A stretch of 64,000 bases of DNA from positions 12,429 to 76,428 of the forward strand of contig CANSPQ010000001.1 in the NCBI GenBank assembly GCA_947648915.1, in the 5' to 3' direction. Source of the stretch: an uncultured Bacillales bacterium. GTDB lineage: Bacteria; Bacillota_I; Bacilli_A; RF39; UBA660. Both the position numbers and the translations under genes were made by a program. Numbering within the stretch: position 1 is the stretch's first letter; each line of letters opens with the position of its first letter. The notes beneath the pieces are model-generated. The model was not told the origin of the DNA. It worked only from the letters and a program-made list of their open reading frames with translations, and searched no databases. Positions 4,359 through 43,388 of this stretch are shown here, piece after piece.

Positions 4359-4808
4359 CTATCTTTGACTAAATTCATAAATACGTTCTGTTTCGGAATA
4401 AATAGGTAAGGAAAATGTTCCACCAACGATAGGGATATCCATATAAACATAAGTTAATATTCCATAAATAAAATATCGACTATTTTTTTCCGGATATTCA
4501 TAAACACAGTATTTATAGTTTGTCCCTATCCTTGTAATAGGTTGATATTCTATTCCATTATGTCTATGAGTTGGACAATTTAAATTACCATTGCTACTTG
4601 AGCGATACCCTAAGTTGGCTAAAGATGTTTCAATTTCTGCTGCTGATAATTCATTATACCCTTCAAATTTTTCTAATGAATTAGCAATTTTCCCATTCAC
4701 TTTAAAGGATTTCATATAACTTAAGGTTGCCGCCAAGAAACCGAAAGTAATCACAATAAACACAATCATAATATTATATAGAAATGTACTTCCGATTGCT
4801 TGTCTCAT
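4359..4808 (-). CDS. TadE/TadF-like pseudopilin (paralog 1)
   Basis: 149 aa. N-terminal TM (FLYNIMIVFIVITFGFLAATLSYMKSFKV). Paralogous to 3925..4347. Lies directly downstream of the flp pilin gene. Confidence 0.55.
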   Translation of the reverse strand: MRQAIGSTFLYNIMIVFIVITFGFLAATLSYMKSFKVNGKIANSLEKFEGYNELSAAEIETSLANLGYRSSSNGNLNCPTHRHNGIEYQPITRIGTNYKYCVYEYPEKNSRYFIYGILTYVYMDIPIVGGTFSLPIYSETERIYEFSQR

Positions 4809-4828
4809 ATCTTACACCACCCTAAAAA

Positions 4829-5011
4829 TTATGCACCTGTCGCTCCAGAGCAAGTACCATTTGTCCATACTCCACCGTTATTATGACATTCACTTCTCGC
4901 GCTTGTATTATTCATCATATTTGTAATGATTGGTGTAGCGATTGCGACAATAACACCAATTAATATGATTGTTACAACTGTCATATTTGCTTCTCCAGTT
5001 ACTTCTTTCAT
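4829..5011 (-). CDS. flp: Flp/Fap-family type IVb prepilin (60 aa)
   Basis: MKEVTGEANMTVVTIILIGVIVAIATPIITN... has a short leader, a G then E(+1) processing-site-like motif, a hydrophobic helix and a short Ser/Thr/Asn/Cys-rich tail. RBS AAGGTGGTGA. Sits in Tad locus context. Confidence 0.7.
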   Translation of the reverse strand: MKEVTGEANMTVVTIILIGVIVAIATPIITNMMNNTSARSECHNNGGVWTNGTCSGATGA

Positions 5012-11255: not shown

Positions 11256-12065
11256 TTAACCTTCTACTTGCCCCATTGCTGCAGTTAATTCATCATTTGG
11301 AACAGTATTAGCATTGATAAAGTCTCTTAAAGTTTGTGAACTTACCATAGTGCTTCCCTCTGGTACTACCGCAGTTCCACCATGTGGTACTGGGAATAAT
11401 TCAGCTGAGAAAGCAGTCATGTATTTTCCTTTTAATAACAATACGTTAATTTCTGGTTGTACTCCAAAGATTAAACTACTTGGTGTACGAGCTTCATCGC
11501 TATTTTCAAATACATTTCTTCCTGCAGAATCTTTTACAGCTAATACTTTTACGTTTTCTACTAATTTACCAACCATAAGCTGTCCATTTTCATTTACAGC
11601 TTTCATGTAAATATCAATGTAATTTCCAGGAAAAATTGAATTTCCATAAGTTTTATCCATTGTAACAGCCATATTGTAAGGAACTTCTCCATCGGCTACT
11701 TCAACAAATGCGGAATCTGGTAAATCAGCTTCATTTACTACAACTCCACTATAGAACATACTTCCTTTTGGAATTACAGTATTGTAGTTGCTATATTTAC
11801 CAATCACAAATGCGGATGAACGAATTACGTTACTCTGCAATACAACTGGTGCTACATCGACATATTCAATCATGTCAGATGTAATTCTTGTTCTTGGTTG
11901 AATGGTCTGTGCTGCTACTGGTATTCTTTTAACTGGGTTTACCATTCTGTTAATTTGGATACGATATCCAAAGAATAAGACTAAGATAATCGCGATTACT
12001 CCAATAATCGTAACTGTGTTTTTGTTTCTAAAAAATCTTTTTAATGCAATCATAAAATTATTCAT
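11256..12065 (-). CDS. CpaB/RcpC-like Flp pilus assembly protein (N-terminal TM + SAF-like domain)
   Basis: 269 aa. TM is VTIIGVIAIILVLFFGY. This is followed by IPVAAQTIQPRTRITSDMIEYVDVAPVV, typical of the SAF/CpaB fold. Immediately upstream of tadA. Confidence 0.5.
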   Translation of the reverse strand: MNNFMIALKRFFRNKNTVTIIGVIAIILVLFFGYRIQINRMVNPVKRIPVAAQTIQPRTRITSDMIEYVDVAPVVLQSNVIRSSAFVIGKYSNYNTVIPKGSMFYSGVVVNEADLPDSAFVEVADGEVPYNMAVTMDKTYGNSIFPGNYIDIYMKAVNENGQLMVGKLVENVKVLAVKDSAGRNVFENSDEARTPSSLIFGVQPEINVLLLKGKYMTAFSAELFPVPHGGTAVVPEGSTMVSSQTLRDFINANTVPNDELTAAMGQVEG

Positions 12066-36726: not shown

Positions 36727-38787
<2,061 letters not shown>

Positions 38788-38842: not shown

Positions 38843-39433
38843 ATGGAAGTATTAGATAAAATTCAACCAGACGAGATTAAACCAATAGAGGATATATTGA
38901 CGCAAACATTTGATTCTATTTTACGACAATACAATTCCTTACTATATGCGATTAAGGATAATGCAGGATTAAATGCAATTGGAATTGCAGAAGATGAATT
39001 GTCTAGAAAACATATTGATATTTCTGAATTTCCAAATCGGGATAAATTACAATTTTATATTACACAGTACATACAAAATATACCTATTATTGCTAGATTA
39101 CAGGAACATATTAACAATAATATCTATCCAAGAAACAATAAAAATCATGAGCAAATGAAAAAAGAACTTATGGAGATTCAATTAAATCTTAATGTCAGAA
39201 GAGAACTTTTGCATGCTTCAGAAAATGGAATACAAAAAATACTAATGGAATGGGCAATGATACAATTTATAATTGAAAATCCAACTCGCATTTCCATTTC
39301 TACTATAGAACAATTAATTCAGACTGGATATAACGGTTTGTGTGGAACTCCATTAATGAAAGAAATGTATCAGTTGATTCACCAAAATAATCAACTTAAG
39401 AAAGAACTTAATTTAATCAATAAAGCTAAATAA
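38843..39433 (+). CDS. Hypothetical protein (~196 aa)
   Basis: ORF 38819..39433. The internal start MEVLDKI at 38843 has an AGGATGTGA RBS. It is the only plus-strand gene in this minus-strand block. Confidence 0.4.
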   Translation: MEVLDKIQPDEIKPIEDILTQTFDSILRQYNSLLYAIKDNAGLNAIGIAEDELSRKHIDISEFPNRDKLQFYITQYIQNIPIIARLQEHINNNIYPRNNKNHEQMKKELMEIQLNLNVRRELLHASENGIQKILMEWAMIQFIIENPTRISISTIEQLIQTGYNGLCGTPLMKEMYQLIHQNNQLKKELNLINKAK

Positions 39434-39499
39434 AAGGACCATTAGATCCTTTTATTTATTTATTTATGTAGATTATAAACTACATATTATTACTCTTGT

Positions 39500-40972
39500 T
39501 TATTGAATTTTAAGAAGGCGGGCACTAATAAACTCCCATGATGCAGACGAGTCAACACTACAACTCAAAATATATAAACCAGCATTAGTGCCATTATCAT
39601 AGCCACCACTACCAACAACTATCATATTTCCTTTTTTTGGCCAATAAATGTCACCCACATGAGTGTTCTCATTTTCTAATGTTTCAATTGGTAATGCAAC
39701 TAAAGGATTGTCAGAATCATATCCTATTTTTGATATGTATCCCTCTGTAGCTGCATTCGCATATCCAATAGGTTGATAACATTCATTAAATTTATCTGAT
39801 TCATATTGATTTTTATTATAACAAATATATGTTTGATGGTCCTTGATATTGATTCCATCTATGAATTGAAATACATTTCCAAATATATTCTCTACTCCTC
39901 TATAAATAATTGAACTATTATCTGACCCATCTGCACTTCCAGAATGCATTCCTAAGATATCACATCCTCCACTTGCGATTGGTCCTGTATGTGATGCATT
40001 CGTATATCCTGCTCCTAGTTTTAATTGACTATTATAATCTGCATATTCTACTAAATATAATAATTGTAAGATGAAATAATGATAATCTAGTTGTCCAAAT
40101 TCATTTCCTAAATTAGTGGCATATGTTCTAAATTCAGTAATGGTATGATTTGTGAATGGCTTTACTCCACTCCTACTATGTACTCTAGTTGTATCTCCTG
40201 ACATTGTATATCTTCCTACACTAAATGCTTCACTCTTACTGTATCCTTCTTGGTAGTCTTTGGTAATTGCTATATATTCATATCCATTCTTTTGTACTCT
40301 TTTATAATAAAACTCTGGTATATAAGTTAATACTTCTCCGTTACTTCCATCAAATTTGAAGTTATCTTCTCCATACCATGCAGTTATTGTTTTCGTATCT
40401 GTATTGTAATTATAGGATTTGATATCACCCCATGGATAAATACGATCAAAATCGTTTTGTACAGAAGTTGTTCCCACTTGTGCATTTGCCACTAATCCTA
40501 CTGCATCATCAGTTCGTTCCCATGCACTTGATTCTGTTTCTATTGCTCTTTTGATTCCATATACTTTTGGTGATTCTATTACTACATCTTCTAATGTACA
40601 CGGTTCTTTATCTACTACTTTTGGACTTTCATCATCATAACCTTTTTCAACACAGTATTTTCCATATTTGGCGATAATACGCATCTTTCCATTCTCGCCT
40701 ATTACAAGTGTTCCACTACTTGGTTTTGCTCCTTTATAAGTTAAGATATCACTTGTTAAATCAATTGTTCTTTCGATTTCTTCTCCTTCTAACATCGATT
40801 CTAGTTGATAGTTCTCTGCTGCTTCTAAGATCCCATTTACTGATTCTATCGCTGCTCCTCTTCTTGACTTTTCAATCACATCCATTATCATTGGCGTTGC
40901 GATTAGTGCGATTACTGCTAGTATTACGATTACCGCTAATAATTCTACTAATGTAAATCCTTTTTTCTTCAT
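39500..40972 (-). CDS. Large (490 aa) protein with class-III (type IV pilin) prepilin N-terminus
   Basis: MKKKGFTLVELLAVIVILAVIALIATP has the canonical G|FTLxE prepilin peptidase site and methylation motif. A roughly 450-aa soluble C-terminal domain follows. GAAAGGAAG RBS. Confidence 0.6.
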   Translation of the reverse strand: MKKKGFTLVELLAVIVILAVIALIATPMIMDVIEKSRRGAAIESVNGILEAAENYQLESMLEGEEIERTIDLTSDILTYKGAKPSSGTLVIGENGKMRIIAKYGKYCVEKGYDDESPKVVDKEPCTLEDVVIESPKVYGIKRAIETESSAWERTDDAVGLVANAQVGTTSVQNDFDRIYPWGDIKSYNYNTDTKTITAWYGEDNFKFDGSNGEVLTYIPEFYYKRVQKNGYEYIAITKDYQEGYSKSEAFSVGRYTMSGDTTRVHSRSGVKPFTNHTITEFRTYATNLGNEFGQLDYHYFILQLLYLVEYADYNSQLKLGAGYTNASHTGPIASGGCDILGMHSGSADGSDNSSIIYRGVENIFGNVFQFIDGINIKDHQTYICYNKNQYESDKFNECYQPIGYANAATEGYISKIGYDSDNPLVALPIETLENENTHVGDIYWPKKGNMIVVGSGGYDNGTNAGLYILSCSVDSSASWEFISARLLKIQ

Positions 40973-40993
40973 TCAAATCTTCCTTTCTTTCTT

Positions 40994-41019
40994 AAATAAA
41001 CCATAAAAAAAAGGGGTAT
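40994..41019 (-). terminator. Hairpin GGGG(G5)-TATA-CCCC followed by U9 on the minus strand (terminator of pcrA unit); contains a C9/G9 homopolymer
   Basis: Plus strand a9-GGGGTATACCCCccccc at 40994-41019. The palindrome is GGGGTATACCCC. It lies 22-48 nt upstream of the pilin-like start. Confidence 0.5.
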
Positions 41020-41137
41020 ACCCCCCCCCGTTTACAAATAGCTAACATAATCATTCCCTACTCGCAAACTATTTTACGATTTATTTTGACATTTTTAGTA
41101 TAGCATATCGATTTATCTATTTCAATATTTATTCTGT

Positions 41138-41293
41138 TTAATCTTTATGTAATGCGTTGTATGTAATATAAAATATAAGTAAGCCTGCAAAAAATAATCC
41201 AATCCATAAAAGAGGATTACTTCCATTTGCAACAATCCATCCTTGAAAATCTTTTGCAATCTTATTAATACTATCTACAATATTTAATAACAT
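41138..41293 (-). CDS. Small membrane ORF (51 aa) between pcrA and the terminator
   Basis: Not in the ORF track. ATG at rc(41291-41293) is preceded by GGTGA and starts 1 nt after the pcrA stop. Encodes MLLNIVDSINKIAKDFQGWIVANGSNPLLWIGLFFAGLLIFYITYNALHKD. Confidence 0.3.
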   Translation of the reverse strand: MLLNIVDSINKIAKDFQGWIVANGSNPLLWIGLFFAGLLIFYITYNALHKD

Positions 41294-41294
41294 A

Positions 41295-43388
41295 TTATTC
41301 ACCTGATACCTTTCTATATGTTTTATGACCTTTTACTAATTTCTTGATGCCATGAGGATATGGAAATGCAACTGTCAGAATACTTGTTTCAATTCCTACA
41401 ATCATTCCAACACCAAATTTTTCGTGCTCTACTTTCTCTCCGATATGATATTGAATTGATGTATCAATATTATCCTCTTTATACGTTTGCGTTTTTGCCT
41501 GTACTTTTTGTTCTTCATCTATTTCTAGATAGTTTTCATCAATTTCATCAATGAAACGGCTTGGCATGTTATAGCTCAAATCTCCAAAGATTGTTCTTCT
41601 CCTTGCATTCACTAAATGGAGTGTCTTCTTTGCTCTTGTAACTGCAACATAACAAAGCCTTCGTTCTTCTTCGATCTGTTCCATATCCATTAAGGAATTA
41701 CTATGTGGAAAAATTCCTTCTTCCATACCAATTAGGAAAACATGTTCAAATTCGAGTCCTTTGGCAGAATGTACTGTCATAAGCGTTACAACATCTGTAT
41801 TATTCTTATGTTCTTCAATATCGGATACAAGACTAATTTCATTCAAAAAGTCTTCTAATGATATAATACCATTTTTTTCCTCAAATGTCTTGGTAATTGT
41901 CTTAAATTCTTCCAAATTTTCTAAACGAATATCTGCTTCTAATGTTTTTTCATGCTCTAATTCTTCTTTTATCCCTGTTTTTTCTAGGATAAGATCAACC
42001 AATTCTGTTAAAGAACAATCCGTTTTTTGAATTTCTTCTATCATGTGTTTAAATGATAATAATTTTCCATCTGTAATTGTACCAAACAAACTCGTGTTCT
42101 CATTCATTGCTTTTATACTTAAAGACTCTAATGATTTTTCACCAATTCCTCTTTTTGGAACATTCACAACTCGATTAAAAGAAATATCATCATTTGTATT
42201 GTATATTAATTTCAGATAACAAATCAAATCTTTAATTTCTTTTCGATTATAGAAATAAAAACTGCCGACCACCTTATAGGGAATATTCTCTTTTAATAAC
42301 ATCTCTTCCATATTTCTAGATTGCGCATTGGTACGGTATAAAACTGCGATTTCTTTTTCTTTAACACCATTTTTTAGAAGAGTTTGAATCTCAGTTGTCA
42401 CATAAAATGCTTCATCTTTTTCATTATCAGCTTTATGATACTTAATTTTAACGCCTTCTTCATTTGATGTCCAAAGATTTTTTTCTTTTTTTTGTTTATT
42501 GTTTTTAATAATATTATTTGCTACATTTAAGATATTTTGCGTAGAACGATAGTTTTCCTCTAATAATATTACTTTCGTATCTTTAAAATTTTTTTCAAAA
42601 TTTAGTATATTTTTATAATTCGCGCCACGCCATGCATAAATTGCTTGAGAATCATCCCCTACAACACAAACATTTTTGTATTTTGCACTTAGCATTTTCG
42701 TTAACATATATTGTGCCTCATTGGTATCCTGATATTCATCAATTAAAATATATTCGAAGCGTTCCTGATATTTTTTTAAGACCTCTGGGTGACTCTGAAA
42801 AAGTTCAATCGGTTTCATAAGCAAATCATCAAAATCAAAGGAATTATTTGCTTTTAGTTTCTTTTCATAACGTTCATACACTTTTACAACAACTTCTTCA
42901 TAGGTGGTAGCTGCATATTTCTCATATTCTTTCGCATTCATTAGTTCATTCTTCGCACCGCTTATTTTATTACGAATGGCTTTTGGGTTATACTCCTTTG
43001 GATCATAACCTAATTCCTTGATAATTTTTTTAATAATGGTTAAGGTATCATCACTATCCATAATTGTAAAATTGGGTTTATAACCTAAAGCTTCGTAATT
43101 TTCTTTCATTAGCTGTAAACCGAATGAGTGGAATGTGGAAATGGGGATTGTATAAGCAATAGAACCTAACATCCCAATTACACGGTCTCTCATTTCTTTG
43201 GCAGCTTTATTGGTAAATGTAATTGCTAGAATATGACTAGGATTGATTTTCTTTTCTTGTACCAAATAAGCAACTTTTGTCGTGAGTACTCTTGTTTTTC
43301 CACTTCCAGCTCCAGCAATTACCAAAATAGGTCCCTCCGTTGTAACAACAGCTTCTTTTTGTTTTTCATTTAAGAAATCTAAATTCAT
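41295..43388 (-). CDS. pcrA: ATP-dependent DNA helicase PcrA/UvrD family
   Basis: 697 aa. Motif I is AGAGSGKTRVLT. UvrD-type motifs run throughout (ITFTNKAAKEM, VDEYQDTN, VTRAK). Confidence 0.85.
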   Translation of the reverse strand: MNLDFLNEKQKEAVVTTEGPILVIAGAGSGKTRVLTTKVAYLVQEKKINPSHILAITFTNKAAKEMRDRVIGMLGSIAYTIPISTFHSFGLQLMKENYEALGYKPNFTIMDSDDTLTIIKKIIKELGYDPKEYNPKAIRNKISGAKNELMNAKEYEKYAATTYEEVVVKVYERYEKKLKANNSFDFDDLLMKPIELFQSHPEVLKKYQERFEYILIDEYQDTNEAQYMLTKMLSAKYKNVCVVGDDSQAIYAWRGANYKNILNFEKNFKDTKVILLEENYRSTQNILNVANNIIKNNKQKKEKNLWTSNEEGVKIKYHKADNEKDEAFYVTTEIQTLLKNGVKEKEIAVLYRTNAQSRNMEEMLLKENIPYKVVGSFYFYNRKEIKDLICYLKLIYNTNDDISFNRVVNVPKRGIGEKSLESLSIKAMNENTSLFGTITDGKLLSFKHMIEEIQKTDCSLTELVDLILEKTGIKEELEHEKTLEADIRLENLEEFKTITKTFEEKNGIISLEDFLNEISLVSDIEEHKNNTDVVTLMTVHSAKGLEFEHVFLIGMEEGIFPHSNSLMDMEQIEEERRLCYVAVTRAKKTLHLVNARRRTIFGDLSYNMPSRFIDEIDENYLEIDEEQKVQAKTQTYKEDNIDTSIQYHIGEKVEHEKFGVGMIVGIETSILTVAFPYPHGIKKLVKGHKTYRKVSGE

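Follow-up and report, generated by a model that had tools for sequence, protein, structure and literature searches.

A 64-kb stretch of the genome of an uncultured Bacillales bacterium (contig CANSPQ010000001.1, positions 12,429 to 76,428; hereafter the window) carries a run of nine G residues on its minus strand (C9 on the plus strand, positions 41021 to 41029) in the leader of a gene encoding a 490-amino-acid (aa) type IV pilin-like protein (positions 39500 to 40972, minus strand). The sequence suggests that this G9 tract is the 5′ arm of a predicted Rho-independent terminator, which closes a promoter-proximal leader. Comparison shows that the whole module is a conserved promoter-leader-terminator cassette standing before more than 50 genes, nearly all of them members of one family of modular pilin-like proteins. 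The module very probably works as an attenuator, with the downstream gene being expressed by read-through. That slippage in the G-run tunes or switches this read-through is a more tentative proposal. To the statement as a whole, namely that the G9 leader is an attenuator module and that slippage tunes its read-through, we assign a probability of about 0.5.

A recurrent leader in front of pilin-like genes

The G9 tract stands out from its surroundings. The GC content of the 64-kb window is 29.3%, and its longest G/C runs are one of nine, one of six, and eight of five nucleotides (nt), which leaves the nonamer as the sole run longer than six. Dinucleotide shuffles yielded an expectation of 0.03 for a G9 run in the window (present in 2 of 100 shuffles) and of 0.01 for the adjacent palindrome GGGGTATACCCC (positions 41013 to 41024, plus-strand numbering). 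The original prediction of a strong compositional outlier beside a palindrome is thus well founded, and its placement of these features needs revision. The C9 run had been located at 41011 to 41019, ten bases from its true position, and within a feature span (40990 to 41025) that cuts the run after five of its nine bases. The neighboring run is A8 on the plus strand (U8 on the minus strand, positions 41005 to 41012) rather than A9/U9, and the G-run lies 49 to 57 nt upstream of the start codon (ATG, positions 40972 to 40970, minus strand) instead of 22 to 48 nt. The plus strand reads ...CCATAAAAAAAAGGGGTATACCCCCCCCCGTTTAC... at the tract, while the order on the minus strand is G9-UAUA-CCCC-U8, with the UAUA loop at positions 41017 to 41020 and the CCCC 3′ arm at positions 41013 to 41016. 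This is the G-rich hairpin and U-run of intrinsic-terminator type that had been recognized earlier, and a simple terminator scan of the 38.5- to 43.6-kb region recovered it, finding eight sites against 1.6 expected, six of which were the G9 hairpin in several registers. Recurrence of this arrangement in more than 50 related loci places the tract far beyond chance.

The elements that precede the tract on the minus strand form a compact leader. A sigma-70-type promoter-like site with an extended −10 element (positions 41097 to 41125; 10 of 12 matches, TG present) is composed of a −35 hexamer TTGAAA (positions 41120 to 41125), a 17-nt spacer, and the sequence TGcTATACT (TG at 41105 to 41104, hexamer at 41102 to 41097). 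It lies 68 to 104 nt upstream of the tract, and transcription is predicted to start near positions 41091 to 41089, which would place the G-run ∼62 to 70 nt into the transcript of a leader of ∼86 nt. The first conserved element of this leader is a 13-nt single-stranded 5′ box, AAAUCGUAAAAUA (consensus, AAAUCAUAGAAUA; positions 41070 to 41082), that is near-invariant in the alignments. It is followed by a hairpin, P1 (positions 41030 to 41069, as folded), with a conserved base (GUUUGC.../...GUAAAC) and a variable tip, and P1 in turn directly abuts the G9 tract. The terminator hairpin of the window is built of four G-C pairs and predicted G·U pairs with the U-run; its folding energy is −6.6 kcal/mol for the four-pair core and −10.0 kcal/mol with the G·U extension. 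A Shine-Dalgarno-like AGGAAG (positions 40979 to 40984, minus strand) stands 6 nt before the ATG and is kept in the four closest copies.

The same leader was found in many other genomes. A scan of species-representative genomes with the pilin-like protein retrieved 49 loci in a handful of uncultured Bacilli/Bacillales metagenome-assembled genomes (MAGs) of gut origin (mouse, rabbit, and others), and at least 15 copies are present in a single MAG from rabbit. The 220 nt upstream of the family genes repeat the promoter, the motif ATGTCAAATAAA-ATCATAGAATAG, the hairpin GTTTGC...variable...GCTATTTGTAAAC, and a run of 9 to 11 G, followed by TAACCCTC (or TATACCCC or TATTTTAAATACCTC), T5 to T8, and then either a ribosome-binding site and ATG or a further ∼90 nt. 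Scanning metagenomes for TATTTGTAAACGGGGGGGG yielded 16 more loci. Applied to 604 kb of sequence, a covariance model built from 27 copies produced 51 matches (E ≤ 0.01), which come from at least 6 MAGs and 3 metagenomes, and one further new copy was found after these 51; the single match in the window spans positions 41006 to 41082 of the minus strand and scores 86 bits. Where orientation was set by the family gene (49 loci), all matches lie on that gene's strand, and the genes that follow the leader copies are mostly N_methyl pilin-like. Across 627 kb, every G/C run of at least 8 belongs to such a leader, save a G9 in locus L004 and an unrelated viral contig. A phage origin of the element was rejected, as the covariance model gave no match at either of two pattern hits in viral contigs.

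Searches against Rfam with positions 40800 to 41400 of the window and positions 4760 to 5010 of L013 gave nothing better than an E value of about 1 to 3. The window leader matches no family of riboswitches, T-boxes, known leaders, or small RNAs (sRNAs), and the whole 64-kb window is without an Rfam gathering-level match, tRNA, rRNA, riboswitch, and T-box families included. The literature provided analogies only and no description of a poly-G leader element. Four leader copies (L043, L051, L058, and L061) stand before non-pilin genes, which encode a small membrane protein, a 73-aa TM2-like protein (by eye), and proteins of 318 and 392 aa, and the module may define a wider regulon. Many metagenomic contigs (L053, L057, L059, L062 to L066, and L073) have an end that lies no more than ∼200 nt from a leader copy. 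Short-read assemblies are evidently broken by the repeated leader and by the conserved N terminus of the pilin, so the family size per genome is probably underestimated.

Folding recovered one architecture in all 15 diverse copies that were folded, consisting of the 5′ box, P1, and a second hairpin with its 5′ arm in the G-run. The 5′ box was unpaired in 15 of 15 folds, and the terminator hairpin adjoins P1 in most of them (one unpaired nucleotide separates the two in L054). In this second hairpin, 4 to 5 G pair with the C arm and the other 4 to 6 G are predicted to wobble-pair with the U-run, the G-run being ∼4 to 5 G longer than the stem needs. Fold z-scores against dinucleotide shuffles range from −1.3 to −6.1 over the 15 copies (window, −3.4). 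P1 had 82 to 86% of its cells paired, compared with 45 to 67% for the whole two-helix structure when the partners were slid. Loop and arm differ by lineage (UAUA/CCCC, UAA/CCCUC, and UAUUUUAAAUA/CCUC) and the hairpin is kept; we regard its persistence despite a lineage-specific loop and distal stem as the best structural evidence. In L012 (positions 4825 to 4953), P1 carries an insertion of ∼50 nt with its own G/C-rich hairpin (GAGAGGGUAACCCCCUC), and the rest of the leader, including a G10 run, is intact.

An additional helix may exist in a subset of copies. The segment AUGGUUUAUUU (positions 40994 to 41004, minus strand) is complementary to AAAUAAAUCGU in the 5′ region of the leader (positions ∼41076 to 41086), and the two could form a closing helix, P0, with z-scores of −3.2 in the window, −3.7 in L064, and −2.4 in L039. 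P0 is predicted in these three copies and L066, as well as in L006 and L052, and is absent from most others. According to the folding model, read-through transcripts would possibly form a three-way junction, with P0 enclosing P1 and the terminator.

A TTGnnA-17-TGnTAnAAT promoter-like site ends 12 to 15 nt before the 5′ box in ∼40 of 51 copies, and the flanks upstream of the −35 hexamer are unrelated between copies. Two layouts occur downstream. In the short type, which includes the window, the ATG follows the U-run by 15 to 33 nt (32 to 33 nt in the window), and there is no promoter between the U-run and the ATG since this distance is too short to fit one. In the long type the ATG follows by 87 to 106 nt, with a second promoter-like site in between. 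With the ATG of the 490-aa gene 32 nt after the U-run and no other promoter, expression would need read-through, which argues that the module is an attenuator. In L010, L012, L013, L016, L019, and others, a terminator-like hairpin (AGAATCTTGTCAAAGAGATTCTTTTTT) ∼60 to 30 nt upstream of the leader carries the −35 hexamer in its loop, and because of this position each such rabbit-MAG cassette looks insulated from upstream transcription.

In the mechanism that we propose, RNA polymerase would start at the leader promoter or arrive from the upstream gene pcrA, and would then meet P1 followed by the G-run/C-arm hairpin and the U-run, where termination is expected. The pilin-like gene would be transcribed only by polymerases reading through the terminator. 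Slipped-strand changes in the length of the G-run (9 or 10 among otherwise near-identical copies) would tune the read-through of each family member, in a graded or an ON/OFF manner, and length would act via the G·U-extended stem and the junction with P1.

Two other leader mechanisms were rejected. Leader-peptide attenuation finds no conserved start codon or Shine-Dalgarno sequence upstream of the G-run in the aligned leaders: the putative start position reads TAG in the window and varies among ATG, TTG, and TTA elsewhere in the family, and several copies lack the mini-open reading frame ATGTCAAATAAATCATAG at the predicted transcription start. Reasoning alone led us to reject an intramolecular G-quadruplex, as a single run of 9 to 11 G cannot form a three-tetrad quadruplex.

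Tract length and competing explanations

The view of the tract as a candidate variable element is borne out by its length, which varies from 8 to 11 among related copies. The 44 intact copies comprise 26 with G10, 14 with G9, and 2 each with G8 and G11, and ∼7 copies have interrupted runs (e.g., GAGGGGG, GATGGTGG, and GGTGGGGGG). The U-run ranges from 4 to 10 nt in the family, and no correlation was detected between its length and that of the G-run. The G-run differs in 3 of 5 pairs of copies with 90 to 95% flank identity and in 18 of 22 pairs with 85 to 90%; ∼0.55 of pairs would differ under a random draw from the observed length frequencies. Tract length is decoupled from flank similarity. 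In the subfamily of the window (window, L066, L064, and L039), the G-run measures 9, 9, 10, and 9 and the T-run 8, 6, 7, and 7, and from promoter to U-run no indels occur outside these two runs other than single gaps, which are located in the 5′ box and in the tip of P1. Stand-alone G-type terminators of the same genomes, which have neither P1 nor the leader promoter, contain G4 to G6, all in the stem. Because these terminators manage with so few, the surplus of 4 to 5 G is specific to the leader. A G9 at ∼+62 in the leader of a prepilin-type gene also agrees with one feature of slipped-strand contingency loci, a homopolymer of at least ∼8 in the promoter, leader, or 5′ coding region of a surface or host-interaction gene.

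One member of the same family combines poly-G and promoter in another way. In L004 (positions 4940 to 4970; MGBC122606), a G9 run falls between the hexamers of a TTGACA...TGaTACAAT promoter-like site; the spacer there is 19 nt long, and G7 would give the optimal 17 nt. This locus appears to represent a second, classical promoter-spacer poly-G arrangement in the family. A C-rich stretch just upstream of it could pair with the G9.

Several observations weigh against slippage-tuned read-through. The length differences were observed between paralogous copies in assemblies. The comparison among strains that had been suggested gives a divided answer: paralogous copies differ (8 to 11), and the ortholog pairs L011/L067 (G10) and L017/L072 (G9) are 100% identical over 2.2 kb, tract included, these two being the pairs from different assemblies, given that paralogue look-ups merge similar places. 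Exact-protein look-ups with the 490-aa protein and its 100% and 77% relatives returned no record. The hairpin energy shifts by only ∼0.5 kcal/mol per G and any register pairs, and no sharp ON/OFF mechanism is evident from the models. Long-type copies, which have a second promoter-like site, show the same G-run lengths, which argues that the run has a part in the leader RNA as such and does more than gate the gene. Tests of covariation in P1 and in the terminator did not reach significance relative to shuffles; the sequences are too conserved for this, and the paired columns hardly vary. Finally, both the termination and the start of transcription are predicted.

Many of these points would be equally at home with a fixed-structure attenuator or riboregulator, which we consider the foremost alternative and a possible, if doubtful, one. 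The G-run would then be structural, a factor (e.g., an antiterminator protein or a NusG-like protein) would read the 5′ box and P1, and differences between 9 and 10 would be near-neutral. The run might contribute a stem together with a G·U equivalent of the A-tract, a stable rG:dC hybrid, or a pause spacer after P1. Such a device would account for the tolerance of any register with barely shifting energy, for the equal lengths in long-type copies with their own downstream promoter, and for the identical tracts of the ortholog pairs. The narrow length range (40 of 44 copies with 9 or 10) is as expected under stabilizing selection, and a 5′ box and P1 base that are near-invariant across genomes, next to a free P1 tip, look like a protein-recognition site. 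However, a hypermutable run of 9 to 11 G is an odd choice for structure at 29% GC, where A residues would pair with the U-run, and the stand-alone terminators suffice with G4 to G6. The length differences between near-identical copies and the promoter-spacer G9 of the sister gene in L004 likewise speak for slippage-tuned read-through instead, and the fixed device is without a named candidate factor.

It is unlikely that the unit of promoter, P1, G-run, and terminator constitutes an independent small RNA gene that stands before family genes merely by coincidence, with a product of ∼85 to 90 nt that acts in trans or as a decoy and a G-run that is part of its terminator or binding surface. This would be possible for the long-type copies, in which the second promoter makes the unit, with its near-consensus promoter and terminator, self-contained; the conserved single-stranded 5′ end also resembles an sRNA seed, and the four copies before unrelated genes fit an independent unit. 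In the short-type copies, including the window, the unit nevertheless holds the sole promoter of the gene, and every unit in the loci fetched via the family protein directly precedes a gene and shares its orientation. Pairing of the 5′ box as a trans-acting seed with the start regions of family mRNAs gave no general complementarity signal and was rejected, and Rfam contains no match.

The original prediction had combined a plain pcrA terminator with a tract that overlaps the pilin promoter and sets the −35/−10 spacing, a model that is now very improbable. The hairpin is indeed the first terminator-like site after pcrA and the 54-aa open reading frame (ORF) behind it in the window, and a promoter-spacer G9 does exist in L004. 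In the window, though, the promoter-like site occupies positions 41125 to 41097, the tract lies at ∼+62 in the transcript, and no −35/−10 pair brackets it. The hairpin moreover accompanies the gene family in many unrelated contexts, and in two related genomes the pcrA unit is without it and uses another terminator. A chance outlier of composition or a sequencing or assembly artifact is effectively refuted by recurrence: poly-G artifacts exist on two-color sequencers and many contigs break next to leader elements, but this tract is internal to its contig with conserved flanks, and more than 50 loci from independent studies share it together with a paired C arm, against 0.03 expected in the window.

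Gene neighborhood and the downstream protein

The minus-strand gene order around the tract is an ABC transporter, pcrA (positions 41295 to 43388), a 54-aa ORF (positions 41138 to 41302), the tract-bearing intergenic region, the 490-aa gene, a terminator-like hairpin (positions 39427 to 39458), and ligA (positions 36727 to 38703). The 54-aa ORF is the last gene of the upstream unit; it overlaps the pcrA stop by 8 nt and ends 12 nt before the leader −35 hexamer. Its product is hydrophobic, and it is probably a real small membrane protein gene since it is conserved directly after pcrA in two other MAGs (L012 and L041, 72 to 74% aa identity). The hairpin at 39427 to 39458 would mark the 3′ end of the pilin-like transcription unit, and it is common to a convergent 204-aa ORF on the plus strand, for which no family was detectable.

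Comparison with those two MAGs indicates where the cassette came to lie. In MGBC129510 (L041, positions 1 to 520 compared) and Lapin-014 (L012, positions 11290 to 11437 compared), pcrA, the 54-aa ORF, and the ligA promoter are consecutive, with no pilin cassette and with an ordinary AT-rich terminator after the 54-aa ORF. The window has a segment at ∼38.8 to 41.13 kb, made up of the leader, the pilin-like gene, and the 204-aa ORF, between the 54-aa ORF and ligA, and the conserved extended −10 promoter of ligA (positions about 38716 to 38750, minus strand) is retained. This segment is an insertion that splits a conserved pcrA-ligA neighborhood. In other genomes the cassette adjoins recA/rny, spo0A, spoIIR, and other genes. 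The G9 hairpin arrived with the pilin cassette and is not primarily a pcrA terminator. It probably does stop pcrA transcription in the window, because the terminator scan found no other terminator after the 54-aa ORF there, and this predicted role would be a secondary one.

The tract was correctly predicted to precede a gene for a pilin-like surface protein, whose prepilin N terminus is genuine. The 490-aa protein has a class III signal with the N-methylation motif MKKKG/FTLVE (N terminus, MKKKG/FTLVELLAVIVILAVIALIA), matches PF07963 (N_methyl; E value, 2e-7), and resembles pilin chains in the PDB with E values down to 8e-5. It shows the features of type IV pilins, namely a short basic leader, G at −1, F at +1, E at +5, and a hydrophobic helix. 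The AlphaFold model (mean predicted local distance difference test score, 79.8) combines a 54-residue N-terminal helix (residues 8 to 61) with a small beta domain and, toward the C terminus, a large domain (residues ∼120 to 490). Among solved structures, this C-terminal domain best matches variable proteins of diversity-generating retroelements (DGRs), TaqVP (E value, 3e-9) and Mtd (E value, 2e-3), and in PHROGs it matches the tail protein family phrog_5302 (E value, 4e-51). Variability in the family alignment peaks over the final ∼40 residues, which recalls the variable regions of DGRs. The fold thus matches DGR variable proteins; as to a template repeat, no second copy of the 3′ end of the gene was found in the window or the fetched flanks.

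The pilin-like protein has 3,219 relatives at an E value of ≤1e-5, with many paralogues per MAG. Many abundant relatives of ∼371 aa lack the pilin part, and some have Mtd_N or tail-collar domains. By analogy, the 490-aa protein fits the concept of a modular pilin (PMC8179133). In monoderm bacteria, modular type IV pilins such as PilB and PilC of Streptococcus sanguinis carry a grafted functional module (PMC8179133, PMC9934059). The window gene likewise encodes a class III signal and an N-terminal pilin helix, followed by what appears to be a grafted module. It differs in that its module resembles DGR variable and phage tail proteins and in that it belongs to a large paralogous family with a shared leader.

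Relation to known switches and significance

The nearest functional analogue is tlpB of Helicobacter pylori, in which a variable G-repeat of the 5′ untranslated region pairs with the C/U-rich loop of the sRNA RepG and repeat length grades expression instead of switching it ON or OFF (PMC8295292). Both systems place a homopolymeric G-run (∼6 to 16) in the 5′ leader of a surface- or envelope-related gene, where it pairs, or in our case is predicted to pair, with C/U-rich RNA. Unlike in tlpB, the C/U-rich partner in the window would be in cis, formed by the 3′ arm and U-run of the terminator, and the run belongs to a multicopy conserved leader in Bacilli. The pil1 locus of Streptococcus gallolyticus offers a second comparison, in which GCAGA repeats change the length of a translated leader peptide and the ribosome melts a premature terminator (PMC3894217). 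Both concern pilus genes of Firmicutes with a premature stem-loop terminator between promoter and gene and a slippage-prone leader repeat proposed to set read-through. The window leader has no evident leader peptide, however, and the repeat itself is the putative terminator arm.

Other switches resemble the element less closely. Homopolymers act as promoter-spacer switches in the Bordetella fim C-stretch, the Neisseria porA poly-G, the Mycoplasma hyorhinis vlp poly-A, and the Treponema pallidum tpr poly-G. The likeness lies in a homopolymer that precedes genes of a multigene family of surface proteins in a small or AT-rich genome, and only L004, with its G9 in a TTGACA-19-TACAAT spacer, shows that layout. 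In the window and ∼50 other copies, the tract is predicted to be transcribed, at ∼+62 and downstream of the −10 element, and for this reason hexamer spacing would be unaffected by its length. In cwpV of Clostridioides difficile, a leader with an intrinsic terminator between promoter and ORF is switched by site-specific DNA inversion through RecV. Like cwpV, the window gene encodes a Firmicute surface protein behind a (predicted) intrinsic leader terminator, with phase control here only proposed. In contrast to cwpV, no inverted repeats or recombinase signal were seen at the window locus, and the variable element is a homopolymer.

Even without a switch, the leader is a new, highly conserved, multicopy motif that has no Rfam match and marks a large surface-protein family. 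For annotating and studying this family it would offer a direct handle, with a covariance model, predictions of where transcripts start and stop, and G9, G10, and G11 variants that occur naturally within one genome, and it corrects the local annotation by assigning the hairpin to the inserted pilin cassette. If the proposed mechanism is true, the homopolymer acts via an RNA terminator arm and not via promoter spacing or reading frame; to our knowledge, a homopolymer switch acting through a terminator arm has not been described. If tract length sets read-through, it would let uncultured gut Bacilli vary, by compact means, how strongly each of an entire set of pilin-anchored binding modules is expressed. 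A further possibility, which we put forward as speculative, is an RNA-level contingency switch, whereby slippage independently sets read-through at 15 to 20 or more paralogues per genome and the cells display changing combinations of pilus-borne, DGR-variable-protein-like lectin modules. This would extend surface variation of the Mycoplasma or Bacteroides style to uncultured spore-forming gut Bacilli.

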